A program made the position numbers and the translations under genes. 64,000 nt of DNA from an uncultured Gammaproteobacteria bacterium (lineage in GTDB: Bacteria > Patescibacteriota > Patescibacteriia > Magasanikbacterales > GWA2-37-8): positions 15,640-79,639 of the forward strand of contig CAZWKA010000004.1 of NCBI GenBank assembly GCA_964634875.1, given 5' to 3'. Shown piece by piece: positions 13,204 through 36,324 of the stretch (the stretch's first letter is position 1; every line of letters begins with the position of its first letter). A model generated the notes under the pieces. The model was given only the letters and a program-made list of their open reading frames with translations. It was not told where the DNA came from and ran no database searches.

Positions 13204-13210
13204 AGACGCT

Positions 13211-16875: not shown

Positions 16876-16881
16876 GCATTT

Positions 16882-17622: not shown

Positions 17623-17646
17623 AGAGATTGGTAAATAAATAGTATG

Positions 17647-18237: not shown

Positions 18238-18277
18238 ATGTAAAAATTAGAAATAAATACTTTTATGCTGCCAAAAC

Positions 18278-19825
18278 CTATTTTTCATTTTTCTCTTCGA
18301 GTCTTGGAAACAACATTGCCGTTTTCTCGATTTTATTCCCAACCACTAATCCAACCCATTGGTTGAGCTCAGCAAGTGGTTTGCCCAATTCTTTTTCTAC
18401 CTCAAGACCAAGTTGACGGAAAATACTTTCCGCGGTTTCCGGCATAACTGGCCACACCATGACCGCGATATGGCGAAGACTCTCTACTAGATGGTGGAGA
18501 AGATCATTAACCGCTTCGGTATCCCCCGCTTTCGCTAGTGCCCACGGCTGCTTATCAGAGATTAGTTGGTCGCAATGGGTAACAAATTGCATTACTGCCT
18601 CCAGGGCATGGTCAAAACGCCAGCGGTTCATACCCTGTGTGTACGCCGGCCAAATTTTGGTGCTTAAAAAATCGATTAATCCCTGGTTCGCCACAGAGAC
18701 TGTCGGAACGACGCTCCCACAATATTTCTCCACCATCGTTAAGATACGGTTGGTGAGGTTACCAATACCATTGGCCAAATCGCCCTGGTATCGGTTTAAA
18801 AAAGCCGTTCTCGAAAAATCACCATCATTATCAAACGGGATCTCACGCATTAAAAAATAGCGCACCGCCTCAAGAGGGAATTCTTCCACCAACTTGAGCG
18901 GGTCAATAACATTACCGATTGTTTTACTCATTTTTTGACCTTCGACGGTGATCCAACCATGGACAGCAATTTGTTGTGGCGGCTCTATTCCGGCAGCCAT
19001 AAGCATTGCTGGCCAAAGAAGGGAATGAAATCGGTTAATCTCCTTACCAACCAGATTCGTACCTGGCCAAAACTTTTTAAACAGCGACGCATCCGCACTA
19101 CCATAACCGAGTGCCGTAATATAGTTTGTCAGGGCATCAAACCACACATACATAACTTGCGCTTCGTCCCCAGGCACTGGCACCCCCCAGGATAACTTTT
19201 CCCGAACACGTGAAATACTGACGTCTTCCAGCCCCGCTTTTAGCATGTTGTACATCTCATTGTATTTGCTGTCGGGATAGATAAAATGTTTATTTTTCTC
19301 AAATAAAAACAAAAGTGGCTCCTGGTAGCGGGTCAAACGGAAAAAATAATTTTCTTCAGTCAAAAGTTCCGGGACGGTATGGTGATCAGGACATTTGCCG
19401 TCCACCACGTCTTTCTCGGTCTTAAAGCTCTCACAACCCACACAATACAGTCCGGTATAGGCTTTTTTATAAATGTCACCATTTTCGGTAACTGCTTGCC
19501 AAAATTTTTGCGCACCTTGTTTATGTCGCTCTTCGGTGGTGCGAATAAAATCATTATTGGAAATATTCCACGTATCCGCCAGATTTTGGTACAAGGCTGA
19601 CATAGCAGCCACATGCACCTCCGGACTTCTGCCAGCATCTTCGGCTGCCTTAAGGATCTTTTGTCCATGCTCATCAGTACCGGTAACGAAACGTACGTCA
19701 TTACCAAGCAGTCGTTGGTAACGCGCCATCACATCCGCATACAGCATCTCAATGGCATGCCCGATATGCGGCGGTGCATTACAATAAAAAATAGCGGTAG
19801 TAAGGTAATATTTATTTTTTTCCAT
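18278..19825 (-). CDS. metG: Methionine--tRNA ligase, short form without the C-terminal tRNA-binding domain.
   Basis: HIGH motif (PPHIGHAIEM), KMSKS motif (KMSKTIGNV) and a Zn knuckle CVGCESF...C. Confidence 0.9.
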   Translation of the reverse strand: MEKNKYYLTTAIFYCNAPPHIGHAIEMLYADVMARYQRLLGNDVRFVTGTDEHGQKILKAAEDAGRSPEVHVAAMSALYQNLADTWNISNNDFIRTTEERHKQGAQKFWQAVTENGDIYKKAYTGLYCVGCESFKTEKDVVDGKCPDHHTVPELLTEENYFFRLTRYQEPLLFLFEKNKHFIYPDSKYNEMYNMLKAGLEDVSISRVREKLSWGVPVPGDEAQVMYVWFDALTNYITALGYGSADASLFKKFWPGTNLVGKEINRFHSLLWPAMLMAAGIEPPQQIAVHGWITVEGQKMSKTIGNVIDPLKLVEEFPLEAVRYFLMREIPFDNDGDFSRTAFLNRYQGDLANGIGNLTNRILTMVEKYCGSVVPTVSVANQGLIDFLSTKIWPAYTQGMNRWRFDHALEAVMQFVTHCDQLISDKQPWALAKAGDTEAVNDLLHHLVESLRHIAVMVWPVMPETAESIFRQLGLEVEKELGKPLAELNQWVGLVVGNKIEKTAMLFPRLEEKNEK

Positions 19826-19831
19826 ACAGAA

Positions 19832-20509
19832 TTATTGTTTGGCGTTAATAATGACAACAAATTCACCTCGATCATCCCCCATTTGTCCGCTTATTGTGGC
19901 AACGGTACCGCGGTACACTGTCTCAAATTTTTTAGTGAGTTCACGGCAAACCATAATTTCACGATCCGTCGAAAAAAAACCAGGCAACTCAGCCAAACAT
20001 TTTTTAATCCGATGCCCTGATTCATAAAAAACAATGGTATACGGGCTCTCAGCCGCTTCTTTAAAAAACTTCTGCCGTTTTGTCTTGTGCGGTGGGAAGC
20101 CTAAAAAAACAAACTTATCCGTAGGGAAACCCGAAATAGACAGTGCCGCAACGGCTGCACACGCACCCGGTATTGGCACCATAACACTGTCGGGTACCGC
20201 TTTTAAGACTGCCCGGATCAAAACGTTACCCGGGTCACTAATACCGGGTGTGCCAGCATCGGTCACCAAGGCAATATTTTTTCCTTCATCCAGAAGAAGT
20301 TGGATTTCCTTTATTTTTTTAAGGTCGCTATGTTGGTGATAACTAAGCGTTTTAGCGCTAATACCAAAATGATCAAGTAAATTCCTGGTAACCCGGGTAT
20401 CTTCACACAAAACCAAATCTACTGATCGGAGCGTCGTCAAAGCCCGTTCGGAAACATCTCCCAAATTACCAATAGGCGTTGCTACAACAAATAAGATTCC
20501 CTGAGCCAT
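19832..20509 (-). CDS. rsmI: 16S rRNA (cytidine1402-2'-O)-methyltransferase RsmI.
   Basis: Tetrapyrrole-methylase fold. N-terminal FVVATPIGNLGDVSERALTTLRSVDLVLCEDTR matches RsmI. Confidence 0.85.
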   Translation of the reverse strand: MAQGILFVVATPIGNLGDVSERALTTLRSVDLVLCEDTRVTRNLLDHFGISAKTLSYHQHSDLKKIKEIQLLLDEGKNIALVTDAGTPGISDPGNVLIRAVLKAVPDSVMVPIPGACAAVAALSISGFPTDKFVFLGFPPHKTKRQKFFKEAAESPYTIVFYESGHRIKKCLAELPGFFSTDREIMVCRELTKKFETVYRGTVATISGQMGDDRGEFVVIINAKQ

Positions 20510-20618
20510 AGTGGCACTATACTAGCAAAAAAGCCTTAAAACGTAAAGTTTGTTCTTTGGCTGCACTCCTTCCTTTTTTAGCGGCTGCGTGCTAGAGTAG
20601 TTTTACACTTAAAAATGT

Positions 20619-20975
20619 ATGAAAAAAATCATCTTTGCCCTCACGCTTTTAGCCTTCTTAGGCGCTCCTTACACAGCCCAGACAGCTGAAGTAGCTGCTA
20701 AAAAGGCTGTTACAACAAAGGCCGCAGCCAAAACTACACCAGTCAAAAAAACCATTACACCAACGAAAGCTCCGACCAAAAAAATTATTCCCGCTACAGC
20801 TAAAGGACAGACCGCTCCCCCACCGACTTATTTTGAACTCGTTAAAAAGGCACAACAGGAATATCTAACCGCCAGTAAAAAGGCGAAAGCCAGTAAATCT
20901 AAAGCTGGACTAGAAGCAGCTGAAAAGGCGTATAGTCAGGCACTGGAAAAAGCTTCTGCACTTCTCGGTGTATAA
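20619..20975 (+). CDS. Small secreted low-complexity (K/A/T/P-rich) protein.
   Basis: Signal peptide MKKIIFALTLLAFLGAPYTA followed by AKK/TKK repeats. Confidence 0.4.
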   Translation: MKKIIFALTLLAFLGAPYTAQTAEVAAKKAVTTKAAAKTTPVKKTITPTKAPTKKIIPATAKGQTAPPPTYFELVKKAQQEYLTASKKAKASKSKAGLEAAEKAYSQALEKASALLGV

Positions 20976-20985
20976 GAAATAATTA

Positions 20986-21012
20986 AAAAAGACCGATTCT
21001 ATCGGTCTTTTT
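20986..21012. terminator. Bidirectional rho-independent terminator aaaaagaccgattctatcggtcttttt between convergent genes.
   Basis: 8-bp stem agaccgat/atcggtct flanked by A5 and T5. Confidence 0.55.
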
Positions 21013-21023
21013 ATTATCTCTTA

Positions 21024-21653
21024 TTAAAGCGCTGGCGGAGTGCTGGGCGGCGCACTTATGAGCGGAACGTCGTTCTCAAGCGCACCGTTAAATGCCTTTA
21101 CAACATACACGACAATACTCTGTGCGCTCAGAATAATGACCAGCCCAATAATCGCATTGAAGAAAGTCCGTTTGGCTGCACCAGTCCGTTCACTATTGCC
21201 ACCAGCAGTCAAAAAAGTAAAGCCGGAAAGCAAGATCATAACCACAAAAATAATACCCAAAAACCCCAATGCCACCCGGATCAAGCTAGCAACAATCATC
21301 CGGGGATCCGTGCTTCCTAACCCTAAAAACTCGCCCAAAAGATTAATCCCACCCATAACGGTCGTGTCGTGAGTCGGAACAGATACCACCGGACCGGGTT
21401 CAATTGGTGGCGCTACTGTAGGTTGCGGCTGCGGCTCAGCAACGTCAGGCTGCGGGGTAATCGGCGGAATATCAGTTTCATCCGCTGCCAACTCGGGTTC
21501 GGCAGTTTGAGCTAAAACGAAAAAACGTGGCGCAGCCAAGCCAACACAGACAAAGAGTGAGATGCATATAACGGCTAAGACTTTTCGAATCATACGGAAA
21601 ATATCTAACTCAAAAAAAGAAACAACGTCAGGAATGCGTTGCCTTTGAGGCAC
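21024..21653 (-). CDS. Membrane protein with a Pro-rich spacer and a C-terminal two-helix hydrophobic hairpin. Possibly a VirB2/TrbC-like pilin.
   Basis: N-terminal TM, a PQP-rich linker, and a C-terminal ...ASLIRVALGFLGIIFVVMILLSGFTFLTAGG..FFNAIIGLVIILSAQSIVVYVV, two TM helices separated by a short loop as in conjugative pilin subunits. Confidence 0.3.
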   Translation of the reverse strand: MPQRQRIPDVVSFFELDIFRMIRKVLAVICISLFVCVGLAAPRFFVLAQTAEPELAADETDIPPITPQPDVAEPQPQPTVAPPIEPGPVVSVPTHDTTVMGGINLLGEFLGLGSTDPRMIVASLIRVALGFLGIIFVVMILLSGFTFLTAGGNSERTGAAKRTFFNAIIGLVIILSAQSIVVYVVKAFNGALENDVPLISAPPSTPPAL

Positions 21654-21904
21654 TAAGAGCGCATTAAAATCAGAAAAAATGCATAATGAAGCTACTAAGT
21701 TCGACTGTCCAAGCCCATCCGTCCAACCAACTCAACTAGCCGGCAGAGCTTAGAGCAGCGAAATTGTTCACCTCTATTACACACTCATTTCTGATCTTAA
21801 TGAACGTGCCTCTCTAGGTACCGTACTCCCCTCATTAAAAAGTACAAGTGGATAACTTTTTACTGCTTTAAAATCTTAAAACTAGTTCATGCCTCAAGAA
21901 AAAA

Positions 21905-22579
21905 TTATTTTTCTTTATCAGCTTTAACGCGCAACTCACCGACCGCTTTCAAGATAGCTTGCTCCTCTTTTTGTGCATCAGTATTTTTAGCAAAACCGTT
22001 ACTATAGCTTGTACCGGCCACACGCCATGTCCCTTCTACTTTATTGAAAACGAGAACGCTCACTAAAGTAAAATTTTTATCTTCGAGGTCATCCAAAAAA
22101 TAGTAATAAGCTCGAGTAGCACTTTTTTGTTCGACTGAAATAAATTTTGTTTCGGCAAGTTTTGGATATGAATCTTGTAAATAAGGCAGTGCCTGCTTCC
22201 ACTCATCATCGCTCGGGACTGGTGTTTCTTTTGCAGGATCAATAAAATTTAAAAAGCTTTCTTTGTTACCAGCGGCTAAAATAGCAATGAGTTCCTGGTA
22301 TGATGCCTCAAGTTCAGCGCGTAATCCTACGTTAAGTGTTGGAGCAACAGCTGGTTTTTTAGCAACCATCACTGTATCAGCAGTAACGTTGGCAGCCACC
22401 ATCGCTCCATTATTTTGGGGAGCTTCATCGGTTGGTGAAATTGGAGTCTCATCCGTTGGCATACCATCCTTTACGGCTGAGTTACCCTCAATTTCTTGGG
22501 TAACCTGCGTACTGCACCCTGCCCCCACAAGCATAAAAACTACAGCAAACACCACACCTGCACGAATTAGTTTTTGCAT
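21905..22579 (-). CDS. Hypothetical lipoprotein.
   Basis: MQKLIRAGVVFAVVFMLVGAGC is a lipobox-type signal. Confidence 0.4.
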   Translation of the reverse strand: MQKLIRAGVVFAVVFMLVGAGCSTQVTQEIEGNSAVKDGMPTDETPISPTDEAPQNNGAMVAANVTADTVMVAKKPAVAPTLNVGLRAELEASYQELIAILAAGNKESFLNFIDPAKETPVPSDDEWKQALPYLQDSYPKLAETKFISVEQKSATRAYYYFLDDLEDKNFTLVSVLVFNKVEGTWRVAGTSYSNGFAKNTDAQKEEQAILKAVGELRVKADKEK

Positions 22580-22716
22580 ACATCATTTTAATAATGAGGG
22601 AATAAAGTACAAAACTTAAAGTATCATAACATGCCTTAAGGCTAAAATCAAAAAACCTCGACAGCACACCAGAATCAGCTTACACCATACGGCGATAGTT
22701 CTTTGCATTTTAAAAA

Positions 22717-24321
22717 CTAGCTTCCGACGACGCTAAAAGAGCTAAGGGGAATTTCAAATAGTTTAATTATTTTTTCATTTTGCGGATTACGTTTTAAAAA
22801 AACAATGGTGTAACGATTAGCAAAAACTGGAGCCCAAGCCGGATCTTGAAGACGTCTAATAATAAAAGGAAATGTCCACGGTGATTTATTTGAAAAAGAA
22901 TACACCAGAGCATTAAAGCCATACATCTCGTTCACCTCTTTCCAGACCTCTTCATTCTGATGGAGAGGCGCATAAACCTCGTTGTAGAAAGCAGCCCGGT
23001 ATGCTTCCGGACGGTTATCAACAAAAGGGCGGATACGGGGGAACACATACCAAATCAGATAACTTCCGCTATCAAAATCGTTGAAGAGCGGCCCCGCAAT
23101 GCTCTGCTGCCTGATGAACTCACCTGCGCCGGCGGAGTCGTGTGCTACTGTAATTCCCAGCGCCCTGTACGACCTGATTATTTCCGCACGATTGATGAAG
23201 AAGGTGCTGAGGAGGACGATACCTATACTCAAAAACCAGTTTCGGGACCGGACATTGTTTAGAGACGGAAACAATCTACTACATTCAACAATTAGCAGTC
23301 CGGCAAATGGGATGCTAAAAAAACCAAACAGCGCAATATTACGCACCATCCGCCAGGTAAGCACGAAAAAAACAACAAAAAGAATGACTTGCAGCCATGG
23401 TACAAGAGTACGTTTTTTAACAAACAACAGTACTGAGCCGACTACTAGCAAAATACTAATACTTTTAAAAATAACAATCGGCCCATGCCAGGGATAACGG
23501 GCTGCTACTGCTGGCAGGGGTAAATTTTCTTGGATTTCAAAACCATACCCTTCTAAAATAGCGAGCGGATAAAACAGGCCCGCGCCTCCCGCGGGATTAG
23601 CAAGCCCTACTAGTACTACAAACACCAGTAACAACCCCAACGAGAGTCGTTCCTGATGCTGGCGAAGTGACGAAAAAACACTTCTTAAAAAATATAGCCC
23701 TACCAAGCAGGGGCCTAAGAAAAAATAAATATGGAGGTTTACCCAAAGTACTTGGATGATGGGAAGAAGAAGTAAAAAAGCATTCTTTAAGTTGCCTCGA
23801 CGGTACCTCTCCAGAATATAATAAAAAATCCCAACAAATAAATAGCTAAATATTTCCGGACGGATCTCATTGCGTTCAGCCAGAAGCGGAACAATTAAAA
23901 ATCCAGCAATTAAGGCTCCGAAACCCCGTTTATCGACCGGGATCACCGCCCAGAACAACAGAAGAGCAGCAACCAGAGTACAAGCCGAAAAAAATATCAG
24001 CCCAGTATAACCCGCAAGCTGCCACACTAAGAAAAAAATAACACCACTCCCCCAATGATGGTTAATAAAGGGCGCGTCGCTAAGGGTCGCAGCATAAAAA
24101 TTTGTCCGTAAAATAGGTTCAAGCGACTCTCCTTGGCGGACAGCTTCGACAATGATTCTTCCATTCTGCAAATGCCGCCCCAAATCCCCGCCACTAATAT
24201 CAATTTGATGGAACAGAAAAAAAGCATACCAGCCAACCAAAAAAAGCAGGTATAGTACGGACGGTTTCCGGAGAAGAGAAAATTTTTGTTGTAGCCAGTT
24301 TAAAGATACGGTGATACCCAC
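22717..24321 (-). CDS. Polytopic membrane protein, possibly a GT-C fold glycosyltransferase or other envelope-assembly protein.
   Basis: 534 aa with at least 10 TM helices and a roughly 130-aa C-terminal soluble domain. No catalytic motif could be confirmed by eye. Confidence 0.35.
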   Translation of the reverse strand: MGITVSLNWLQQKFSLLRKPSVLYLLFLVGWYAFFLFHQIDISGGDLGRHLQNGRIIVEAVRQGESLEPILRTNFYAATLSDAPFINHHWGSGVIFFLVWQLAGYTGLIFFSACTLVAALLLFWAVIPVDKRGFGALIAGFLIVPLLAERNEIRPEIFSYLFVGIFYYILERYRRGNLKNAFLLLLPIIQVLWVNLHIYFFLGPCLVGLYFLRSVFSSLRQHQERLSLGLLLVFVVLVGLANPAGGAGLFYPLAILEGYGFEIQENLPLPAVAARYPWHGPIVIFKSISILLVVGSVLLFVKKRTLVPWLQVILFVVFFVLTWRMVRNIALFGFFSIPFAGLLIVECSRLFPSLNNVRSRNWFLSIGIVLLSTFFINRAEIIRSYRALGITVAHDSAGAGEFIRQQSIAGPLFNDFDSGSYLIWYVFPRIRPFVDNRPEAYRAAFYNEVYAPLHQNEEVWKEVNEMYGFNALVYSFSNKSPWTFPFIIRRLQDPAWAPVFANRYTIVFLKRNPQNEKIIKLFEIPLSSFSVVGS

Positions 24322-24323
24322 AT

Positions 24324-24992
24324 TTATTTTTTGGAAGCAAAGGCGTGTTTACCGCTCCGACGGGAAAAATGCCAATATACTACCGCGCTGAGCAAGGCTG
24401 AAAAAAAGCACCAGACGGAAATAGCATTTTCCTTATACTGATACAGTGTAAATAAAAGCGACCCTAAAAGGACGATACCAAATACCTGAACTGTTTTTTT
24501 ACTCGACACTGCCCCCGATCCAACAACCACAAGCACATAGGCTGCCCACAGCAATTCAACATAGGGCGTCACAATGGAATACTGGATGCATTTGTTGAGA
24601 ATAAAAGCGGTTGGCGGATAAAGAAAAATTCGATAGAGTAAAAAGCTTCCCACACCGATACCCGCTAAACTAACGACCATAAGAATCTTTTGCCGGAGCA
24701 CGTTGTTTTCTAACAGTAAAATTGCAATGGGTAAAAATATTGGCCAGACACAAAGGGCAAAAATGGAATAAACAACAGCAAAAATATGCTGCGCCGGCAG
24801 AGCCCAACCAAACGAAAGCCAGACAAAGCCTTCGATAATTTGCTGCAAACCGAAAAGTAACGGCACGGCGGCAAACGGAATTTCATGGGGTGATTTTGCT
24901 TTTTTGAGTGTAGCCACCCCAATAGTGCTGAGAGCGACACCAGCGGCGAAACTGGCAACAGGTGAAAAACACATAGCATTATATATGACCAC
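24324..24992 (-). CDS. Hypothetical 6-TM membrane protein.
   Basis: Hydrophobic throughout. Its stop is 2 nt from the start of the downstream membrane protein gene, suggesting an operon. Confidence 0.35.
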   Translation of the reverse strand: MVIYNAMCFSPVASFAAGVALSTIGVATLKKAKSPHEIPFAAVPLLFGLQQIIEGFVWLSFGWALPAQHIFAVVYSIFALCVWPIFLPIAILLLENNVLRQKILMVVSLAGIGVGSFLLYRIFLYPPTAFILNKCIQYSIVTPYVELLWAAYVLVVVGSGAVSSKKTVQVFGIVLLGSLLFTLYQYKENAISVWCFFSALLSAVVYWHFSRRSGKHAFASKK

Positions 24993-25062
24993 AGTTTAGC
25001 ATTAAAAAACGCAAAAATCAATCTTTAAAAAAAGCCCTGGGTAGCCAGGGCTTTAAAAATAC

Positions 25063-25734
25063 TTATTGCTGAATTTTTTGCATGAGTTTGCTAAACGACG
25101 GGCGAAGTTTAATTTTTTCGTACCAGGCCAAAATATTCTGGTAAGCACCAAGTTCCATAGTGCATTGCAGTGCTGTAAGCACAATTGAAGCCAAGCACAC
25201 ATCGGCCACCGTAAAACTGCTACCAACCACAAAATCTTTGCCTGCCAGATGCGCATCAAGCACTTCAAAGTACCTGACCACATCGGCCCGACCCTGGTCT
25301 GCAGCCTCTGCCGTACCCATGCTAAACATCATAAAATATAACACCGGGTCAATATTACGTTGGAGGTGATTAAGACCCCACAGCAACCACTGCGAAACAA
25401 GTGCCCGCTCTTCAATTGTCGTACCAAGCATTTCGGGACGGTATTTTTCGGCGAGATAATTATTGATGGCACACGATTCCCATAGAACAAACTCACCATC
25501 AATCAACGTCGGCACCTTGCCATTGGGGTTAAGTTTTAAATACCACTCAGCCTTATGTTCTTTTTCTTTAAAATTAAGCGACTGTTGTTCATAAGGAACT
25601 GCTAATTCTTCAAGCATCCAGATGCAACGTGCCGCGCTGCCTTGAGCTGAGCCGTAAATTTTGATCATACCAAAATGATTAGGTGAATAAGAAAGTAGCG
25701 TACGCGATACACTGACTGGCGTCAACTCGCACAA
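25063..25734 (-). CDS. Glutathione S-transferase.
   Basis: Thioredoxin-like N-domain MIKIYGSAQGSAARCIWMLEELAVPYE...NPNGKVPTLIDG..VLWESCAINNYLAEKY and a helical C-domain. The likely start is MIKIYG at 25668. Confidence 0.75.
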   Translation of the reverse strand: MCELTPVSVSRTLLSYSPNHFGMIKIYGSAQGSAARCIWMLEELAVPYEQQSLNFKEKEHKAEWYLKLNPNGKVPTLIDGEFVLWESCAINNYLAEKYRPEMLGTTIEERALVSQWLLWGLNHLQRNIDPVLYFMMFSMGTAEAADQGRADVVRYFEVLDAHLAGKDFVVGSSFTVADVCLASIVLTALQCTMELGAYQNILAWYEKIKLRPSFSKLMQKIQQ

Positions 25735-25747
25735 CTCACTTTTCAGT

Positions 25748-25781
25748 TAAAAAAGAAGAACGCGACCCTGGTGGGTCGCGT
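25748..25781 (-). terminator. GC-rich hairpin acgcgaccc-tggt-gggtcgcgt followed on the minus strand by a T-rich run. Terminator of the GC-rich gene at 25854-27293.
   Basis: 9-bp perfect stem. The minus strand reads acgcgacccaccagggtcgcgttcttcttttttaac. Confidence 0.55.
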
Positions 25782-25853
25782 TCGCGTGTTCGAGCGCAGC
25801 TCGCAGCGTTGGCCGCGAGTGTGCGCTACAGGTTGGCGCCTGGTGGCGCGAAC

Positions 25854-27293
25854 CTACTTCTGCTTCTTGCCCTTCTTGAAGTGGTTGCCGCGCCCGCCTT
25901 CGTTCGGGATCTGCGCCTTCTGCGCCGCCCCATTGGTCTTGGCCTGCTGCGTCTTGTCCTGCGCCCTCTGGATCACACCAGCGAGCATGGCGAGGACCTC
26001 GGCCTGGAGCTCGGGGCTATCGGCGCGCACGAGGTCCGTGCGATCCGCGTCGTCCGCGAGGTACTTGTCCTCGCAGCGGGAGGCCACAACGTAGATGATG
26101 GCGCTGCCCAGGCGCTGCGGGTACGCCTCGTCGCTGGTCTTGAGGCCGACGAGCGAGGTCAGCTGGCCCTGGGCGGCCTCGTGGAAGAGCCGCTCGCGGG
26201 AGTGGCTGGGCTCGCCCTTGGCGTCCATGGTGTAGACGCGCATGACCTTGTGCGTCATGCGCTCGACCTTGGGGTCGTTCGAGGACGTGCCGATGACGAG
26301 CGCCAGCGCGCGTCGGACATGGTTCGTGAGGTTCTTCTTGGCCTCGGCGAACTCGCCGATCCGGCGCTCGTCCTCGGGCGAGAGCGGTGTCTTCTCCTTC
26401 TTCGTGGTGGCCACGGTGGTGGCCGGAGCCGGGTAGTTGTCCCACACCCAGCTGAACGCGGCGTCGTCCCGCATCAGGTCGTAGACCCGCTGCTTGGTGG
26501 ACCCGCTGGCGAACATCTCGGGCGGGCTGACCTGGAAGAACTTGGTCATGGCGATGTTGACGCCGCCGTTGATGAGGTCGAGGATCCGACCCCGGTGGAC
26601 GGCGAGGGCCTGGCGGCGGCCGGTGTCCTGCTCGCCCGTGAGCTCGAGCTCGATGCTCATGTCCTTGACGACATTGAGCAGGTGGAAACGGATCGCAGCG
26701 AGGGTCATGCAGTCCTCGTCCTCGCCGATCGCCTGGAAGGTCCAGAGGGGCAGGCACTGGATGCCCACGTTGTGGATCTTCAGGTTGCGGACCCGGATAT
26801 CCAGCAACCGCGCGAGGCGGAGGCGCTCGACCTCGGCCTGCTGATCCTTCTGGCGCTGCTCGGCTTCGGCCTTCTCGGCGGCGGCCTGGAGGTCGCGGGC
26901 GGCGACGCTCTTGAGCTTGGTGCTGGCGCCCTTGGCCGCGATGTGGTGACCCTTGACCTGGATCTCGAGCTGCTGGAGCTGCGCGGAGAGCTGCTGGTGC
27001 TCCTTCACGTAACCCTGGAACTCCTCCAGGATCTCGCTGGGGATCACACCCCCGTCCTTCTCAATCTGGGTGATGGCCTCGTCGGCCGGGACGATGAGCT
27101 CGTCGAGCTCCTTGACCTGCACGCGCAGCTGATTGATCTGATCGGACAGCTTGTCACCCGCGCTCTGGCAGCCAAGCTGGATGCGGAGCAAGAAGTCGCG
27201 GGGCGACGAGATGACCTTCCCACCATCCGACTGCCCGGTGGGGGCGTCGGCGTGGATGGCGGCGGAACCGGACAGTGCGGTGGACTGCGACAT
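25854..27293 (-). CDS. High-GC (about 65-67%) foreign-composition gene encoding a 479-aa protein with a roughly 150-aa N-terminal coiled coil and a basic C-terminal tail. Function unknown.
   Basis: Strong GC3 bias in this frame only; the overlapping ORFs on the opposite strand translate to L/G/A/D/R low-complexity junk. The start is set at MSQSTALSG (ATG 27293), which is preceded by a strong RBS AAGGAGAGG, absent from native genes. The C-terminus reads ...NEGGRGNHFKKGKKQK. Candidate capsid-like or scaffold-containing structural protein (inference). Confidence 0.5.
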   Translation of the reverse strand: MSQSTALSGSAAIHADAPTGQSDGGKVISSPRDFLLRIQLGCQSAGDKLSDQINQLRVQVKELDELIVPADEAITQIEKDGGVIPSEILEEFQGYVKEHQQLSAQLQQLEIQVKGHHIAAKGASTKLKSVAARDLQAAAEKAEAEQRQKDQQAEVERLRLARLLDIRVRNLKIHNVGIQCLPLWTFQAIGEDEDCMTLAAIRFHLLNVVKDMSIELELTGEQDTGRRQALAVHRGRILDLINGGVNIAMTKFFQVSPPEMFASGSTKQRVYDLMRDDAAFSWVWDNYPAPATTVATTKKEKTPLSPEDERRIGEFAEAKKNLTNHVRRALALVIGTSSNDPKVERMTHKVMRVYTMDAKGEPSHSRERLFHEAAQGQLTSLVGLKTSDEAYPQRLGSAIIYVVASRCEDKYLADDADRTDLVRADSPELQAEVLAMLAGVIQRAQDKTQQAKTNGAAQKAQIPNEGGRGNHFKKGKKQK

Positions 27294-27347
27294 GAGCCTC
27301 TCCTTGGACAATGGGACTCTTGGATCTAGGGCACTTCGCCTTTTGAT

Positions 27348-27401
27348 CCTGAACCCCCCAAAGCGTTGCACAAAACTTCTGCACTGCTGCGGGGGGTTCA
27401 A
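27348..27401. repeat. Inverted repeat gaacccccc ... ggggggttc (9-bp arms, about 36-nt spacer) in the AT-rich divergent intergenic region of the GC-rich island.
   Basis: gaacccccc at 27348-27356 and ggggggttc at 27393-27401. Confidence 0.4.
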
Positions 27402-27714
27402 AATATAAGTATGTTTTAGTGTAAAAGAGCGACCTCACAAGATAGCACAAAAATCACCTTTTGTCAAGAGTAAAAAAGACTTATTCTAAGCCAAAAAGAT
27501 TGTAACCGGAACCGAACTTTTACACTTTTGTAACTAAAAATAGCCAACTAGCAGTTTTTTTGCTAAAAATAAACCTTTTTAAGCCCGGGCCCCTTGACAT
27601 ACCTATGTATGAGATGATAGAAAAATCATCGTCAGCTCAGTGCAGCTGGCGTAGCAAGGGGTTTAAAGCAATGCGCACCGTGAATAAAACGTTCAATTTG
27701 AGCAGGGGGAATCA

Positions 27715-27930
27715 ATGTCTTTGAAGCCGGAAATGGTGGACACCGGAATGGGCGGCCTTCGGGTTGACCCGCAAGCCCTCCGCCGACACGAGGCCGAGCA
27801 AGCGGCGAACCAGGTCGCTAGCGGCAAGCTCCTCAAGCACCGCCCCAGCCGAACCGTCCTCTTCACGCTCGCACTCCTCGTTCTGCCTATCGTGGTCACC
27901 ACGCTGATCGCGATCCTGGGTCGTCGCTAG
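27715..27930 (+). CDS. Small high-GC tail-anchored membrane protein (71 aa).
   Basis: Soluble N-terminus and a single C-terminal TM helix LFTLALLVLPIVVTTLIAILGRR. Same GC-rich codon usage as the neighbouring foreign gene. Confidence 0.35.
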   Translation: MSLKPEMVDTGMGGLRVDPQALRRHEAEQAANQVASGKLLKHRPSRTVLFTLALLVLPIVVTTLIAILGRR

Positions 27931-28041
27931 CCCCACCCCTTCCCCGGAACCTCCCCGCCACCGTGCAGGTTGAGGTACGCCAACCGGGATCTTTCTCAGT
28001 TTTCTACTCTTAGAAAATCGAGATTGGTTCCGGTTTTTTAA

Positions 28042-28069
28042 TTGAAATAGATTTAAAACCTGCTATACT
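28042..28069 (+). promoter_or_regulatory. Sigma70-like promoter TTGAAA-N16-TATACT upstream of the FkbM methyltransferase gene.
   Basis: -35 at 28042-28047 and -10 at 28064-28069, with the ATG at 28079. Confidence 0.35.
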
Positions 28070-28078
28070 AGGCGCACT

Positions 28079-28774
28079 ATGGAAAAACGAACTTTTACGT
28101 TTAACAACCAAACCCTGCACGTCTCACTGCGTGACGAAGCTGACAACAGCGTCTTTGCAGAAATTTTTAAATTGCGCGAATATCGGCGGGCAGAAGAAAA
28201 AATTATTACAGCCACCTCACCCATTATCGATGTCGGTGCTCACGCTGGGTTTTTCAGTCTGTACACCCGGGCACTCAATCCAACTGCCCCTATCTTCGCA
28301 CTTGAACCAGAAGCGAATAACCTGGAGGCATTAGAAAAGACGGTTGAACAGAATAAGCTTGCTGGAGTCAGCATAATTCCGAAGGCGCTCCACGACCAAA
28401 CCGGTCGCGCTAATTTAATGTTGGCAGCAGATAATCACAATCATTATATTGAACGACCTTTTAAGGGCGATGGCAAAAAAATTCGCGTGGCAACAATTTC
28501 TTTGAGTGAATTATGCTCACTGTATGCTATTACTAAAATTTCCCTTGTTAAAATGGATATTGAAGGTGGCGAATACGTTATTTTTGACAGTTGGGACGAT
28601 AAAGATTTCGGCATGATCGAAACGATTATCCTTGAATACCACAACACCAAATCCAAAACCTACAAATTAATCGAGACGCGCCTGCGTGAACATGGATTTA
28701 GCGTTGAAGTATTCCCTTCAAAGTTTGAAAAGACCATGGGCTTTCTTTTTGCGCAAAATAAGCGAAAGTCATAA
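28079..28774 (+). CDS. FkbM-family SAM-dependent methyltransferase.
   Basis: IDVGAHAGFFSLY is the Gly-rich SAM motif of Methyltransf_21/FkbM; ...LVKMDIEGGEY is also present. Confidence 0.65.
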   Translation: MEKRTFTFNNQTLHVSLRDEADNSVFAEIFKLREYRRAEEKIITATSPIIDVGAHAGFFSLYTRALNPTAPIFALEPEANNLEALEKTVEQNKLAGVSIIPKALHDQTGRANLMLAADNHNHYIERPFKGDGKKIRVATISLSELCSLYAITKISLVKMDIEGGEYVIFDSWDDKDFGMIETIILEYHNTKSKTYKLIETRLREHGFSVEVFPSKFEKTMGFLFAQNKRKS

Positions 28775-28862
28775 AAAAGTTGCGCTAGAAATTCTACATT
28801 CCGTAGAATTTTTTTTATTTCTGTAGTATACTTACCTCGCTTGTTACATTTTTGAATCTCAC

Positions 28863-30278: not shown

Positions 30279-30350
30279 TCCCGGGTAGCGCAGCGGTAGC
30301 GCAGTTGGCTGTTAACCAATTGGTCGTCGGTTCGAATCCGACCCCGGGAG
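30279..30350 (+). tRNA. tRNA-Asn (anticodon GTT).
   Basis: Cloverleaf folded by hand: acceptor tcccggg/cccggga, D-arm gcgc-agcggta-gcgc, anticodon stem gttgg/ccaat with loop ctGTTaa, T-arm gtcgg-ttcgaat-ccgac, discriminator G. Confidence 0.8.
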
Positions 30351-30495
30351 CGATCAAAAATAATGGCTAGAATTAGCCATTATTTTACTTTTTACTTAAT
30401 TAAGTAAAAAGTAATGACTTGACAAGCGAAGACAAATCGGTTGAGAAAACAGCGGCATTAGAGCAGTATTGCGTTGCGTTTAATTTTAAAATTCT

Positions 30496-31179
30496 ATGAA
30501 AAAAATATATTTTTTACTTCTTGGACTATTGTGTTTTGGCATGAGCGGGTGTGCGTTAAGTGGAAAGACCAATCAAAACTCTAATAACAATACCCCTTCA
30601 TCAACACTCGCCTCGTCTTTTGATATTAATAATCTAGATACCTGGGATACTTTTAGCTCTAAAGAATGGAATCTTAGTTTTAAGCATCCTCAGCAATGGA
30701 AGCTAGCGAAAGAAGAGGGCGCCCAGTATCAGCATATTTTTATTTTTAAAGATGAAATAACTGATAAAAACTTATTTCAGGTCACGATCGAACCACTCTC
30801 TTTCGCACCAGTTAAAATAGAAAGTGATTCGGATGGTGATTTTACTACGAAAACACAGCAAGAAATAAATTCTTTACGTGAAAAAATTAAAAAGAGTCCG
30901 TCTTTGATCCTTGCCAGCAAGACACCTGCTCTGCTAAGCACAAACTACGACATTCCAGGTGGCGGATTCCATCGTCGTGCACAATTTTATATAAATAATG
31001 ATCTGGTAACAATTACTCTTGTCTTGGGCATAGAATCACCCACCATACCTTGGGGAGAAGAAAAAAGAAGAATTGTTCAAAAAACTATAGATGATATTAA
31101 CCAAGGAAATGGAGGTCCTGAGGCAAAGGAAAGCTTAGCTATTTTTGAAAACATAATTAATTCTTTAGAAATATTATAG
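30496..31179 (+). CDS. Hypothetical lipoprotein.
   Basis: MKKIYFLLLGLLCFGMSGC lipobox. Confidence 0.45.
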   Translation: MKKIYFLLLGLLCFGMSGCALSGKTNQNSNNNTPSSTLASSFDINNLDTWDTFSSKEWNLSFKHPQQWKLAKEEGAQYQHIFIFKDEITDKNLFQVTIEPLSFAPVKIESDSDGDFTTKTQQEINSLREKIKKSPSLILASKTPALLSTNYDIPGGGFHRRAQFYINNDLVTITLVLGIESPTIPWGEEKRRIVQKTIDDINQGNGGPEAKESLAIFENIINSLEIL

Positions 31180-31665
31180 ATAAGAAAGGATCGCTGCTTA
31201 CTTAGGTTAGCAACCGGGGATCTATCTACGAATATTTTAAAAAGTATTAAGAGACAGATAATTGTTCGGACAATTTTTCCAATCAATAGATCTAAACTCG
31301 CCCAACCAAGGGAGCGCAGTAGCATGAAGGGCTAATTGAAGTACGGTATCAAAGGGTTTTCTTAGCTCAAATTCTAATTTTCTTCCATTTACAAACGGGT
31401 TCTGAATTAGTAATCTAATCAGAGCTCGTTTTTCGTTAACTTCAGAACCATCAAAAATCTGTTTAACCCTACGAGAGAAATTTAATACAGTGGACAAGTG
31501 AATATGATACTCGTGGTCGGCCTTGCGTACTCTTCTGGCTCAACACTAAGACGATATTGCTTGTCTTTAAACTCTTACAGTTTTTGTCATAGTCGTCCTT
31601 AGTACCCCCCGAGTGAAGACGTGGTGAGTTCATGACTAGTATGGTATGCTCAATAGAATAATCCT

Positions 31666-32706
31666 ATGTTTCTAAAATTACCCACAGAAGAAAGGTCCGA
31701 AAAAATTGACTTCCTACGAGGAAGCGCAGTCTTTTTCATGCTTGCCACTCATATTAATGTGGTTTTTGTAAAAGAATATACTTATATCTTAGATAGATTA
31801 ACATGGTGGGGAGCAACCGTAAGTTTTAGTGTTTTCTTATTTTGCTTTGCTTATATCTATGGCTTAAAATTATCTGACACTAAAAAATTAAGCAGAGAAA
31901 AACAAGTTAAAAGAATTTTTCTTTTGCTTTTTATTTATTATATAACAACTTTTTTCAGCCATTTTTTTCTTTTTAACAGCATCTCAATCGACGAATTACA
32001 GTCTATTTTAACCTTTCAATATTTACCTCTCTTCACTGAATTCATTATTCCTTTTTTTCTTTATACTATTCTAATTTTAATTTTTTATCCAGTTTTAAAA
32101 AAAATGCTAAATCGACCAATACTATTTATTATAATTTCTCTTATTATCTACTTTTTGGGTGGGTGGCTTTATATGCTTGATGGAATGGGTAATTTTTTAA
32201 ATGTTGTAAAAACTTTAATGGTGGGTAATGGGCATATTCATAGCTATGGTGTCATATCTTACTTTCCCATCTTTGTTCTCGGATTCATTGCTGGTGGAAC
32301 ACAAAAAAATAGCGAGGGCAACTCGTCAACTCTATCAATGTTTATACTATGTTCGATTTTATTTGTTTTTTTAAAAATTTCAGGACTTTCCGAGTGGTAT
32401 AGATTCCCGCCGTCTGTCCTATTTTTACTCTATGGAGTTATTTATAGTTTTGGAGTAATATTACTATACAAATATATCAAAAGAGCAAGCATCCTAGATA
32501 AATATTTTATATTTTTAGGCAAAAGAGCCTTGTTTATCTTTTTGATTAATGTGCTCCTGATTTTAGGTTTATCTAGTTTTTTAAATCATGAAAAATTTGC
32601 CGTAAAAACAGTCTTGTTATTGCAATTTTTAATTATTACAAGCATATCTCTGGTAACCTATTTTTATGAAAAAATGGCTATTATTTGGCAGAGAGAAAAA
32701 ATCTAG
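31666..32706 (+). CDS. Acyltransferase family 3 (OpgC/OatA-like) membrane O-acyltransferase.
   Basis: N-terminal KIDFLRGSAVFFMLATH matches the conserved IDxLRG...H start of Acyl_transf_3, with about 10 TM helices. Confidence 0.5.
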   Translation: MFLKLPTEERSEKIDFLRGSAVFFMLATHINVVFVKEYTYILDRLTWWGATVSFSVFLFCFAYIYGLKLSDTKKLSREKQVKRIFLLLFIYYITTFFSHFFLFNSISIDELQSILTFQYLPLFTEFIIPFFLYTILILIFYPVLKKMLNRPILFIIISLIIYFLGGWLYMLDGMGNFLNVVKTLMVGNGHIHSYGVISYFPIFVLGFIAGGTQKNSEGNSSTLSMFILCSILFVFLKISGLSEWYRFPPSVLFLLYGVIYSFGVILLYKYIKRASILDKYFIFLGKRALFIFLINVLLILGLSSFLNHEKFAVKTVLLLQFLIITSISLVTYFYEKMAIIWQREKI

Positions 32707-34228
32707 AAAATTTTGGTATACTTTAGTTGGACTAGTGCTACTGTTATTTTGTAGTTTTTTTATAATACTTTTTTTAAGTATTAAACCTCAAAATCTAAAC
32801 GATCTTTTTTTTAACAATTGGACGTGTAATACTTTTGAGAATGACAAAAATGAGCTGGTTGAGTCAGTAAAGCCCGATAAAAAGTGGATTTTAATTGGGG
32901 ATGAATTTACAAAAGAAGAAAAACTAGTAATTTTAAAAGTGAAGCTTGCTGATAAAGCAACAAGATATTTTGATCGACCGGATTCTGTAAAAATTTTTTA
33001 TGAGCTGGTAAATACAGAAAATGAACAACTGACAGATAGTGTGGTGTCCGGTTATTTCGCTACGAGCTCGCTGATACATGTAGGCGAACTTTTGTTTGAG
33101 GAAAAAATAAATATAAGCAGTTTGCCTGTCGGCGAATACAGGGTCAATCTAAAAGCACAGTTTGACTGTGGTGAGTCATTGGCCTTTTTTGAAAATATTT
33201 TTATTTCCTATCCATTATACGTCGTATGGAGTTTTGATTGGGAGGGGTATGCTGTAAAAAATGAATATTTGGAAAAAATAGATGCACTTACTGAAAAACA
33301 TGATAATTTTCCTCTGAGCCACGTCATTAATCCAAGGTTATTTATTACCAAAACTATTCCGCAAGCACAGCGAGATCGTATGAAAGATTGGTTGGTAGAA
33401 AGAAAAAATAATAAAGATCATAGTTTGGGTTTGCATTTGCATATGTTTTATGAAAATCTTGAGGCTGCAAAGATACCTATTCCAAAAAAAGATATACTTG
33501 ATCTTGAGGCAGATTTTTATGCTTCGGTCACGACTTCACCTACGAGCTCGCCAGTAAGCTCATCGAGCACTACGACTTTATTTGATGCGAGTAAATTACA
33601 AAAGAAGCAACTGTATGATCTTGTATACTGGGGTACTAAGTATGATGACGGTTATGATATTTTGGTAACAAATTTTGGTTATCGTGAGCTAGATAAAATA
33701 GTAAAATGGTCAAAAAAACTTTTTACAGAGCTTGGTTTCGGAACACCAACCACATATCGATCCGGTGGTTGGTTTGCAGATTCAACTACCTTAGAGGTTT
33801 TACAAGACAATGGCTTTACTGTAGATACTTCTGGTAGGACAAAATATAATTTTGGTACAAATAAAATTCCTGGATTTTGGGATTTATCAATTACTTCACA
33901 GCCCTATCAGCCCAATGTGAAGGACCAAAATTCAGCTATGGCACCAAATATGAAGATATGGGAATTTCCAAATAATGGAGGTGATTCGTGGTGGTATACC
34001 GCAGAACAAATGATAGAGCGGTTTAATGCAAATTGGGGAGTAGTTGGTAAACCGCTTGAAAAAAGAACCGTTGTAGTTTTTTTAAGTCACCCAGACTGGT
34101 TTCATGTAGATGAGCCGAAAGTTGACAAGCTCTTTAATTATACCGATGCTTATTTGAATTCAAGAGACAATGGCCCAGTATCATATCAAAATTTAGAAAA
34201 ATTATATACAATATGGACTCAATTTTAA
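32666..34228 (+). CDS. Membrane-anchored extracytoplasmic protein of unknown function, possibly a divergent polysaccharide deacetylase (CE4)-like domain.
   Basis: N-terminal TM and a Ser/Thr-rich linker (TSPTSSPVSSSSTTT). Weak CE4-like elements VWSFDWEG and LHLHMF. Overlaps the upstream and downstream genes, suggesting an operon. Confidence 0.3.
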   Translation: MKKWLLFGREKKSRKFWYTLVGLVLLLFCSFFIILFLSIKPQNLNDLFFNNWTCNTFENDKNELVESVKPDKKWILIGDEFTKEEKLVILKVKLADKATRYFDRPDSVKIFYELVNTENEQLTDSVVSGYFATSSLIHVGELLFEEKINISSLPVGEYRVNLKAQFDCGESLAFFENIFISYPLYVVWSFDWEGYAVKNEYLEKIDALTEKHDNFPLSHVINPRLFITKTIPQAQRDRMKDWLVERKNNKDHSLGLHLHMFYENLEAAKIPIPKKDILDLEADFYASVTTSPTSSPVSSSSTTTLFDASKLQKKQLYDLVYWGTKYDDGYDILVTNFGYRELDKIVKWSKKLFTELGFGTPTTYRSGGWFADSTTLEVLQDNGFTVDTSGRTKYNFGTNKIPGFWDLSITSQPYQPNVKDQNSAMAPNMKIWEFPNNGGDSWWYTAEQMIERFNANWGVVGKPLEKRTVVVFLSHPDWFHVDEPKVDKLFNYTDAYLNSRDNGPVSYQNLEKLYTIWTQF

Positions 34229-36144
34229 GTTTTGGAATACTAAATTTTAACATATTAATTTCGATAATTTTTATTGCTATTGTAATTTTAGCTGTCTTTA
34301 ATTTTGCTATTTTTGTTCTTAAAAAAGAAAAATATTATCGCCTTTTGGTTATATTAAATACGGCTAGTATTGCTTTAATTTTATTTTTTTCTTTCGTTAC
34401 TTTATTTTCAAGGCCTTTTGCTCGGTTGGAAACGGTGACCGAAGGCGGAAATTTGATAGAGGCGCACCAACCGATTGAAATATCTTTTACGGTTCCTATT
34501 AACCCGGAGAATACATCTTTTCGGATGTCCCCTGAAGTCGATGGTGATTGGGTTTTCCAAAATGCCTCGCCATTTTCTTCTCGAAAATACAAAGATAGAG
34601 CAATTTTTATTCCCAAAGAATCTTTTTATCCTGAGACTAAAATTGTAGTATATATTGTGGGATTGAAACGATTGTTTCCTGGAGGTAAAAGACATGAGCA
34701 ATCTACTGAGTTTTTTTCTCCCAAACTACCTATTATTACAGAGGTATACCCTAAAAACGGTCAAGAAAATGTAAGCACAAAGGATCCATTTGAAATAACT
34801 TTTGACGCGCCGAGCGGAGAATTCATAAACTGGGTGTACGAGATCAACCCACCAGTTGATTTTACTGTCGACAAATCGGAAAATAAGCATAAACTAGTAT
34901 TTTCTAAACCTCTGCTACAAAATCATGAATATTCCTTATCAATCTCCAGATCTGGACGTTCGTATCGAGTTGAAGATTTTTCTGATCTTGAAAAGGGCGA
35001 TGTAGAATTAATGGATAAAGTTACTTTTAAGACTACCGCTTCGCCATTAGTTAAATTTTTCGATCAGCAAGGGAATGGTGTGCGAGCCGAAAGCCCTATC
35101 AAAATAGTTTTTTCTGAAGAAATGAACCAGACAAGTGTGGCAGAAAAGTTTACCCTTAGTCCAGCAACGACAGGTAAAATAAATTGGGAAGATGGAAAAA
35201 CTTTTATTTTTGTACCAGATGTTGAATTTAAAAAAGGTGTTGATTATACAATTAAATTTTTAAGTGGGATGGAAAATAAATATGGAGGCAACACCGACCA
35301 CGATATAGAGCTGCATTTCAGCCCGGTGGGAGTAGTTAAAATTTTATCAATATCCCCCAAAAATGCTTCTCAGGGGCAATCTGTCGATTTATCAAGAGTG
35401 GTAATTGAATTTGACCAAGAAGTAGATCATACTTCAGCGCAAAATTCTTTTTCTATATCTCCAAATATTCCAGGGTCTTTTTCTTGGGAAGGTAATAAAA
35501 TGATATTCTCTCTTAGTTCTAGTTTGGAAAATTCAACAAAATATAGTATAAAATTAAAAAAGGGTATCAAAACTGTTTATGGATTAGACTCGGCCGAAGA
35601 CTATAATTATTCATTTACTACAAAAAATAAGGTTTTTTCTTTGGACATACCTTTGTATGACCAAAGCGAAACTTTTACCTGCAATATTGCTGCGACCAGA
35701 ATGGTACTTGCTTACAAAGGAATCGCTCTTTCAGAAAATTCTATTAAAGTAACAATTGGTGAAGGTGTAGATCCGAATGTAAACTGGGTTGAGGGCTACG
35801 GCGTGCATTGGGGGCCAATATATAATTTTATAAGTAAATATCGCACTGTATCTTTAAAAAATAATTGGAATATTGAAGATCTTGTACAAGAAGTACAGCG
35901 AGGTAACCCCGTAATAATTTGGGGGCACAATCAGTTTAGTTCGACAGGCACATTTGAACTTGATTCAGGGGCTACTGGTTATCACGGAATGCATTCGGTA
36001 GTGGTAAAAGGTTTTGTTGGAAACGTAGAAAATCCAACTTCTATAATTGTAAATGACCCTTGGCTCGGATCAAGAACTATTAGTCTTTCAAGCTTTAAGA
36101 GCCTCTGGGCTTATATTGACAATACAGCTCTCGTAGTTTATTAA
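34213..36144 (+). CDS. Surface protein with four Big_5 (SbsA-like Ig) domains and a C-terminal C39-like papain-fold peptidase domain (Peptidase_C39_2/YvpB-like).
   Basis: Two N-terminal TM helices. Four roughly 100-aa repeats of the pattern I..F...(M/V)...S......SP...G...W.......F.P........Y.I.(L/F). The C-terminus has QSETFTCNIAATRMVLAYKG (catalytic Cys context of C39-like) and GYHGMHSVVVKG (His). Confidence 0.55.
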   Translation: MDSILSFGILNFNILISIIFIAIVILAVFNFAIFVLKKEKYYRLLVILNTASIALILFFSFVTLFSRPFARLETVTEGGNLIEAHQPIEISFTVPINPENTSFRMSPEVDGDWVFQNASPFSSRKYKDRAIFIPKESFYPETKIVVYIVGLKRLFPGGKRHEQSTEFFSPKLPIITEVYPKNGQENVSTKDPFEITFDAPSGEFINWVYEINPPVDFTVDKSENKHKLVFSKPLLQNHEYSLSISRSGRSYRVEDFSDLEKGDVELMDKVTFKTTASPLVKFFDQQGNGVRAESPIKIVFSEEMNQTSVAEKFTLSPATTGKINWEDGKTFIFVPDVEFKKGVDYTIKFLSGMENKYGGNTDHDIELHFSPVGVVKILSISPKNASQGQSVDLSRVVIEFDQEVDHTSAQNSFSISPNIPGSFSWEGNKMIFSLSSSLENSTKYSIKLKKGIKTVYGLDSAEDYNYSFTTKNKVFSLDIPLYDQSETFTCNIAATRMVLAYKGIALSENSIKVTIGEGVDPNVNWVEGYGVHWGPIYNFISKYRTVSLKNNWNIEDLVQEVQRGNPVIIWGHNQFSSTGTFELDSGATGYHGMHSVVVKGFVGNVENPTSIIVNDPWLGSRTISLSSFKSLWAYIDNTALVVY

Positions 36145-36324
36145 AGTAAATAATTAACTTTTAATCTTGAGTTGGATTACTTTACAAAACAAGTCCTAAT
36201 TTCACCTACTAGCCGGAACCGGGAAAAAAGTAACTTAATAAGCAGTATTTTATATACTCTATAGGGGATTTGAACCTTGTGGTAATCTTTGCTGCTGATT
36301 TCACCTTAAATTAGCTAAGTTAAT

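Follow-up and report, generated by a model that had tools for sequence, protein, structure and literature searches.

How did two divergently transcribed, GC-rich genes come to stand in a genome of far lower guanine-plus-cytosine (GC) content? The question is raised by positions 25741-28047 of the window (the whole stretch of DNA that was analysed, 64 kb in length), where two blocks, 25761-27396 and 27726-27988, have a GC content of 66% against 43% elsewhere. This module is probably a real piece of foreign DNA that was acquired very recently by a small, Patescibacteria-like genome, in a part of it that is flexible. The module carries one gene for a protein of 479 amino acids (aa) and one for a protein of 71 aa, both of them orphans, and the composition, coding signature, expression signals and assembly of the locus are considered in turn before the alternatives are weighed.

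GC content calculated per 200-bp window passes from 0.40-0.48 to 0.60-0.72 across approximately 25700-27400, drops to 0.33-0.43 at 27300-27700 and returns to 0.64-0.65 at 27700-28000, and all remaining 1-kb bins of the 64-kb window have a GC content of 0.52 or less. Change points estimated by maximum likelihood are located at 25761, 27397, 27726 and 27989 and delimit two GC-rich blocks, the first of 1,636 bp and the second of 263 bp, with an AT-rich spacer of 329 bp between them. Both results agree with the abrupt island of about 65-67% GC within a 43-45% GC genome that was described in the initial annotation of this DNA. In 300-bp windows the large block has a mean GC of 0.667, and sequence outside it has 0.432 +/- 0.053 with a maximum of 0.59. 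The same contrast is given by GC at third codon positions (GC3), which is 0.94 in the larger gene and 0.79 in the smaller, and by tetranucleotides: the L1 distance to the host is 0.84 for the large block and 0.25 +/- 0.05 for host chunks of 1.6 kb, which places the block about 12 standard deviations away from them. The spacer, in turn, has a tetranucleotide distance of 0.70, within the host range for 240-bp chunks (0.62 +/- 0.06), so that its earlier description as AT-rich like the host holds for both measures. The spacer and the reading frames on either side of it are:

27397-27725, no strand: AT-rich spacer of about 39% GC between the two divergent genes, a predicted divergent promoter region
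25854-27293, minus strand: 479-aa orphan gene with an ATG start, GC at codon positions 1/2/3 of 0.66/0.40/0.94
25809-27329, plus strand: antisense shadow open reading frame (ORF) of 506 aa by the ORF list, not a gene, GC at codon positions 1/2/3 of 0.92/0.41/0.66
27715-27930, plus strand: 71-aa orphan gene for a tail-anchored membrane protein, GC at codon positions 1/2/3 of 0.71/0.43/0.79

Long ORFs on both strands of the large block are expected because its DNA is GC-rich, and the codon-position values indicate which of them is coding. Those of the 479-aa frame are the signature of genes from high-GC genomes and therefore mark a genuine coding frame; those of the 506-aa plus-strand ORF are their mirror image, and this ORF is thus an antisense shadow. 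Codon usage in the 479-aa gene (AAG 33, AAA 0; CAG 37, CAA 0; CTC 29, CTG 12; GTC 20, GTG 9) favours C-ending codons and bears out the strong GC3 bias first noted for it. The 71-aa gene has the same preference of CTC over CTG (7:3, for 29:12 in the larger gene), and the C-ending bias common to both genes is consistent with one donor. Its product has a single C-terminal hydrophobic segment (residues 50-68, maximum of 2.72 on the Kyte-Doolittle scale over 19 residues), as expected from its initial description as a divergent, GC-rich gene for a tail-anchored protein.

Public gene calls for the large block are both antisense, namely a 502-aa call in Logan (L001, 7743-9251) and a 482-aa call at NCBI (P0001, on a 106,709-bp contig), the latter 100% identical to the shadow ORF. 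Since gene callers took the antisense shadow, the real 479-aa protein is absent from the public collection of 15 billion proteins.

The following translation and transcription signals were assigned to the two genes:

27297-27305, minus strand: Shine-Dalgarno (SD) sequence AAGGAGAGG, 3 nt (ctc) ahead of the ATG of the 479-aa gene
27439-27467, minus strand: predicted promoter of the 479-aa gene, TTGACA, 17 nt, TATCTT, with TG before the second hexamer
27350-27400, minus strand: GC-rich hairpin UGAACCCCCC...GGGGGGUUCA in the predicted 5' untranslated region (UTR) of the 479-aa gene
25784-25853, minus strand: GC-rich 3' UTR of the 479-aa gene with two more stable hairpins, by RNA folding
25748-25783, minus strand: 11-bp stem with TTCTTTTTT after it, forming the intrinsic terminator of the 479-aa gene
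27594-27622, plus strand: candidate promoter of the 71-aa gene, a perfect TTGACA (27594-27599), 17 nt, a weak ATAGAA
27982-28039, plus strand: long hairpin AACCGGGAUC...GAUUGGUUCCGGUU with U6 after it (z = -3.84), probable terminator of the 71-aa gene

SD-like motifs are missing from 32 of the 35 native starts and from the 71-aa gene, that is, from 33 of the 37 starts overall (28079, 19832-20509 and 59549-60046 are examples of the genes compared). The strong SD sequence that the initial annotation saw before the 479-aa gene, and the general lack of such sequences in native genes, both stand, but the spacing of 5 nt given for it has to be replaced by 3 nt. Many native starts are preceded, 6-10 nt before the ATG, by a TATA-like box, which suggests that leaderless or SD-independent initiation may be widespread in the host.

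On the leftward side, the predicted promoter of the 479-aa gene matches the sigma-70-type consensus at 10 of 12 positions, has an extended -10 element and would give a 5' UTR of about 140 nt. The stem-loop in this leader (GAACCCCCC/GGGGGGTTC, z = -4.05) is placed at the upstream end of the GC-rich block, at change point 27397, and the gaacccccc/ggggggttc inverted repeat reported earlier is indeed present in the interval listed for it. At the other end of the gene, the stem GAACGCGACCC-ACCA-GGGTCGCGTTC, with ACCA as the loop, occupies 25758-25783, and with its T-run it confirms the terminator that had been read by eye. The region 25735-25860 as a whole forms three hairpins, with a folding energy of -64.1 kcal/mol (z = -7.2), and none of 200 shuffled sequences was as stable. 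On the rightward side, the candidate promoter of the 71-aa gene falls below the criteria of the promoter scan and is a putative site read from the sequence. The terminator of this gene is directly followed by the promoter of the neighbouring FkbM methyltransferase gene (28042-28069). Because both terminators end short of the promoters of the glutathione S-transferase (GST) and FkbM genes, the module would add two autonomous transcription units and leave its neighbours undisturbed.

The outermost feature of the module is an imperfect inverted repeat that coincides with the T-runs of both terminators:

25741-25761, no strand: left arm, TTTCAGTTAAAAAAGAAGAAC, overlapping the T-run of the 479-aa gene terminator
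28027-28047, no strand: right arm, GTTCCGGTTTTTTAATTGAAA, overlapping the -35 box of the FkbM promoter

Its arms are 21 nt long and match at 17 of 21 positions (81% complementary), a value attained by only one shuffle of the boundary windows in 2000 and the best among 287 T-run contexts in the window. The arms may be the ends of one inserted unit, the halves of a split AT-rich palindrome, or two similar terminators; overall, the repeat favours a single insertion.

The junctions were compared with an assembly made by other software. Logan contig SRR12762304_221371 (12,453 bp) covers 18079-28851 of the window and is identical to it at 10,771 of 10,773 bases, the two mismatches (28836 and 28847) being at the contig end and outside the island. 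All four composition switches are identical in this Logan assembly of SRR12762304. A second assembler thus produced the same junctions base for base, which makes a chimera unlikely. The switches also sit on gene boundaries (terminator stem, 5' UTR hairpin, start region and terminator), and the assembly or binning chimera that the initial annotation had kept as an alternative therefore loses most of its ground.

Related genomes were searched using the methionyl-tRNA synthetase of the window as query, which gave 37 related loci at 39-76% identity (64-76% for the closest). Gene order is common to the window and its relatives over 3800-20509 and not past this point. To judge by the record names (e.g. 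Hainich wells), the relatives apparently come from groundwater-type metagenomes, and one of them is on a 963-kb contig. The window also contains a T4SS_pilin (PF18895) gene; this family has been used for tracing VirB2-like pilins across Patescibacteria (PMC12102498).

Two of these relatives, L022 and L004, have GC-rich orphan ORFs of their own in 39%-GC DNA. In L022 (Ga0074198_1000277) an insert of about 530 bp, at 19447-19979 between atpF and atpH, is composed of a 94-aa orphan ORF (64% GC, GC3 0.81) and a GC-rich hairpin. The atpF-atpH gap is 1-100 nt in the five other genomes that were read base by base (four relatives and the window itself, 10440-10520), and the spacing of the two genes in tblastn searches is concordant in about five further genomes. 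The same L022 locus has a second GC-rich ORF, of 122 aa (12226-12594), after cvpA. In L004 (JACCDN010664668.1, positions 1-900) two ORFs stand in tandem, one of 105 aa that is cut by the contig end (GC3 0.91) and one encoding a 76-aa tail-anchored protein. Downstream of each ORF are a GCGACCG...CGGTCGC hairpin and a 53-nt AT-rich repeat (TTTCCAGTG..TATAAAA..ATAGAAGATAGTG), 79% identical between the two copies, in an arrangement that resembles a cassette array. Some of the L004 ORFs have GGAGG or AGGAGA SD sites, and the gene beside them, from its HELGHY motif, is one that we take by eye to encode an ImmA/IrrE-type peptidase. The L004 repeat motif was found only in L004 when the window, the fetched loci and viral contigs were searched, and no relatives of the L004 and L022 ORFs were found in 2.9 million viral contigs. 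These inserts are analogues, not homologues, of the genes in the window, and they show that small GC-rich transcription units do insert in this group.

Homology searches were performed for both proteins of the module. The 479-aa protein had no match in Pfam, PHROGs, NCBIfam, PADLOC or PDB sequences, no relative in 5.8 billion clustered proteins (word-indexed search) and none in an exhaustive phmmer search of 1.84 billion representatives. With tblastn none was found in 50,697 phage and 72,556 plasmid records, and none appeared in viral, genome and metagenome contigs scanned by pattern and tblastn. The antisense shadow, used as query for relatives that might have been mis-called in the same way, retrieved the same locus only, and the 71-aa protein matched only itself in database searches. 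PADLOC defence models gave nothing beyond coiled-coil noise for the 479-aa protein (LmuB, E = 0.08). The proposal that it is a virion or structural protein found no match to an HK97-fold capsid, encapsulin or other virion family in Pfam, PHROG, PDB or phage tblastn searches.

The 479-aa protein has no transmembrane segment (Kyte-Doolittle maximum 1.02) and ends in a basic C-terminal tail, FKKGKKQK. AlphaFold2 was confident solely for helices 31-79 and 86-177, which form an N-terminal helical hairpin (predicted local distance difference test, pLDDT, 75-87); the other approximately 300 residues were modelled at pLDDT 27-60, for an overall pLDDT of 51, and residues 190-467 modelled alone reached 44. 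The large alpha/beta body suggested for this part at first was not recovered, since the model gives helices there, at these low values. Foldseek searches of PDB and BFVD with the two poor models (pLDDT 51 and 44) returned coiled-coil-type matches only (best E = 0.012, template modelling score <= 0.24), an outcome that is not counted against any fold as the models are too poor. From these predictions the product looks like a cytoplasmic protein in which a long coiled-coil hairpin at the N terminus precedes some 270 aa of body and the basic tail; it might, at a guess, be an accessory protein from a mobile element or phage that partners the small membrane protein.

Several other identities were considered for the locus and set aside. 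A structured non-coding RNA is opposed by strong codon periodicity and by the Rfam search of the island, which gave no family at gathering score and, at E <= 1, one chance 25-nt match. A toxin-immunity pair of the LXG type, exported by a type VII secretion system, does not fit an insignificant Foldseek match, the lack of an LXG match in Pfam and a small gene that is divergent instead of downstream. A PspA/Vipp1-like protein was rejected for want of a PF04012 match.

Taken together, the history of the module is probably as follows. Its donor would have had a GC content of about 65-70% and SD-led translation. Once in place, the central AT-rich region would supply sigma-70-type promoters in both directions. 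The leftward transcript would comprise the 5' stem-loop, the strong SD sequence, the 479-aa ORF and an intrinsic terminator of three hairpins, and the transcript to the right would encode the 71-aa tail-anchored membrane protein and end at a hairpin and U-run. The acquisition was most likely recent, as GC3 is unameliorated and the population is found in one sample only. We infer a single insertion event, the type of donor and the use of these promoters from the features described above.

A number of observations weigh against this account. The 329-bp spacer, with its host-like composition of about 39% GC, is hard to derive from a donor of uniformly high GC. No donor and no homolog were found (about 15 billion proteins; viral, genome and metagenome DNA), nor any second copy in the same sample; what is said of the donor type is therefore pure deduction, and the lack of a donor copy even in the same sample makes it less likely that the donor lives there in abundance. 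The ORFs tested (approximately 6-62 kb) contain no domain of an integrase, a transposase or a phage protein, and the module boundaries have neither a target-site duplication nor att-type direct repeats, the latter having been named in the initial annotation as something to look for. No empty site was found for the locus, shared gene order with the relatives ending at 20509; the 534-aa neighbour, used as query, retrieved two distant contigs without synteny. The promoters and expression of the module are predictions from consensus matches only, the Logan reads may be those of the deposited genome (an independent assembler, then, and not an independent sample), and the signs of a Patescibacteria-like host, namely PF18895, the groundwater relatives and the 963-kb contig of one of these, are indirect and make it an apparent one.

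The host-like spacer leaves room for two insertions, or for a module that had been put together earlier on an AT-rich mobile element. In the first case, which we regard as unlikely, the blocks of 1.64 kb and 0.26 kb were acquired independently and now flank a native divergent promoter region, each having captured a host promoter. The spacer is host-like in GC and tetranucleotides alike, the limits of the large block coincide exactly with its 5' and 3' hairpins, as in a transcript-length unit that lacks a promoter, and the relatives have GC-rich inserts of single ORFs; the small block, moreover, has a GC3 of 0.79 against 0.94 and a terminator that is partly AT-rich. Yet this would require two rare events within 330 bp, both pointing outward and both beside a TTGACA box, and the outer inverted repeat (17/21) and the CTC over CTG bias common to both genes speak for one unit.

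A further and quite unlikely proposition is that the lineage repeatedly captures transcript-sized, SD-bearing ORFs from high-GC partners or phages and places them behind resident AT-rich promoters. The large block runs from the 5' stem-loop to the terminator hairpin, as would be expected of an RNA-mediated capture (reverse-transcribed mRNA) or of one that is precise to the ORF. If the proposition were true, such inserts would be natural tags to the hosts of uncultivated epibionts, and they would be systematically hidden, because gene callers trained on AT-rich genomes choose the wrong strand.

In the second case, a lineage-specific pool of mobile elements (phages or plasmids) would carry GC-rich, SD-bearing orphan ORFs in AT-rich spacers and drop them into chromosomes, so that the module would come from an AT-rich element and not directly from a high-GC cell. 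The tandem ORFs of L004 fit this picture, with a 76-aa tail-anchored protein that resembles the 71-aa one, a similar hairpin and 53-nt repeat behind each ORF and the presumed ImmA/IrrE-type peptidase gene next to them, as do the two separate inserts of L022 and the host-like spacer of the window. Such a pool is nevertheless very unlikely, given that the viral contigs searched contain no relatives of these ORFs, that the L004 repeat motif occurs nowhere else, that a GC3 of 0.8-0.94 in ORFs on an AT-rich element is left unexplained and that the evidence comes from three genomes only.

A misjoin of high-GC fragments from another organism into a low-GC contig is a highly improbable explanation: extreme as the composition contrast is, in a sequence known from one sample only, it would have to account for four switches in 2.3 kb that all coincide with functional boundaries of intact genes and that a second assembler reproduced identically, with no misjoin-prone repeat shared with other DNA and no source organism carrying the fragment in the databases searched. 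A synthetic construct is dismissed because the same sequence occurs in an environmental read set. Foreign DNA acquired in a single insertion is the reading that we consider the most likely.

The module is flanked by GST and an FkbM-type methyltransferase, as first annotated, and further neighbours are DUF6629 and DUF6938; exact protein look-ups of the GST and FkbM products returned one contig from one sample. A tRNA-Asn gene (30279-30351) is situated 2.3 kb from the module, with two host genes between them. The stretch of 20.5-30 kb looks like a flexible region rich in horizontal gene transfer (HGT). Within it, the 534-aa membrane protein (22717-24321, minus strand) has its only relatives among species-representative genomes in two 'uncultured Gammaproteobacteria' assemblies, at 41-44% identity, and the adjacent GST gene (25063-25668, minus strand) is unusual for such genomes. 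Just past the tRNA-Asn gene, 31000-37000 is a 6-kb stretch with a GC content of 0.28-0.37 against 0.43, which encodes an acyltransferase_3 protein, a protein with Big_5 and Peptidase_C39-like domains and several ORFs without family, and may be a second, low-GC island.

Elsewhere in the window, 42039-46216 (minus strand) holds a four-gene cluster of isoprenoid/carotenoid type (UbiA prenyltransferase, polyprenyl synthetase, squalene/phytoene synthase and an amine-oxidase/phytoene-desaturase-like protein) that one would not expect in a reduced genome. A pair of paralogous P-type cation ATPases, both full-length, is encoded within 25 kb (13211-15871, minus strand; 37116-39800, plus strand), and a bacterial type IB topoisomerase is encoded at 55823-56926.

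The interest of the locus lies in what is probably a very recent transfer into a reduced, probably symbiotic bacterium from a donor of very different composition and translation signals. It also points to a blind spot of annotation, as gene callers may also choose the wrong strand of similar GC-rich inserts in other AT-rich genomes. The analogous inserts of two relatives suggest a recurring process, which could show with which partners DNA is exchanged.

Comparison with known systems was made for each class of element that the module resembles. By the features of classical genomic islands (integrase, flanking att repeats, insertion at a tRNA gene) it has none. Compared with an insertion sequence or a miniature inverted-repeat transposable element, it has an imperfect 21-nt inverted repeat and lacks both a target-site duplication and a transposase, and neither the window nor the retrieved loci contain another copy of it. 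An element of the IS200/IS605 type with subterminal hairpins was rejected, as neither TnpA nor TnpB is present.

Integron cassettes share with these inserts the short ORF unit followed by a hairpin site, and in L004 two such units, with conserved stem arms and variable loops, are arranged in tandem. Searches for an integron integrase and for an attI or attC consensus found neither, however, and the module differs from cassettes by its own promoters (as predicted) and T-run terminators, and the L004 motif is absent from the window. ORFans of phages and mobile elements are likewise without homologs, atypical in composition and located in variable regions, and the combination of a coiled-coil protein with a small membrane protein would suit them, but no link to a phage or plasmid has been demonstrated for the module.

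HGT into aquifer Patescibacteria is documented, with donors that are mostly other Patescibacteria (mSystems 2025, PMC12455944). The divergence between donor and recipient is 23.7% on average and most transfers are not recent; only one event was assigned to Actinomycetota, and recent transfers across phyla were inferred to be rare (PMC12455944). Like the islands of that data set, the module consists of foreign genes in a flexible region of a reduced genome; unlike them, it is unameliorated (GC3 0.94), has no donor or homolog and measures only 2.3 kb. Since the transfers known so far are mostly old and within the phylum, the module is striking but not unprecedented.

The closest resemblance in anatomy is to the morons of phages of the HK97/HK022 type, which are defined as DNA that is extra in comparison with related genomes and of deviating GC content, with its own promoter and factor-independent terminator, between undisrupted genes (Cumby, Davidson and Maxwell 2012, PMC3594210). 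The module has a GC content of 0.66 against 0.43 with sharp change points, its own promoter and terminator (by consensus) and intact neighbours, and the insert between atpF and atpH in L022 reproduces the pattern of filled versus empty sites. It differs from morons in standing among chromosomal housekeeping and accessory genes, in having two divergent genes and in the lack of an empty site, and it is moron-like by anatomy and not by membership because no prophage surrounds it. The event is of a known kind, of which the module is a further case, and its two orphan proteins are new.

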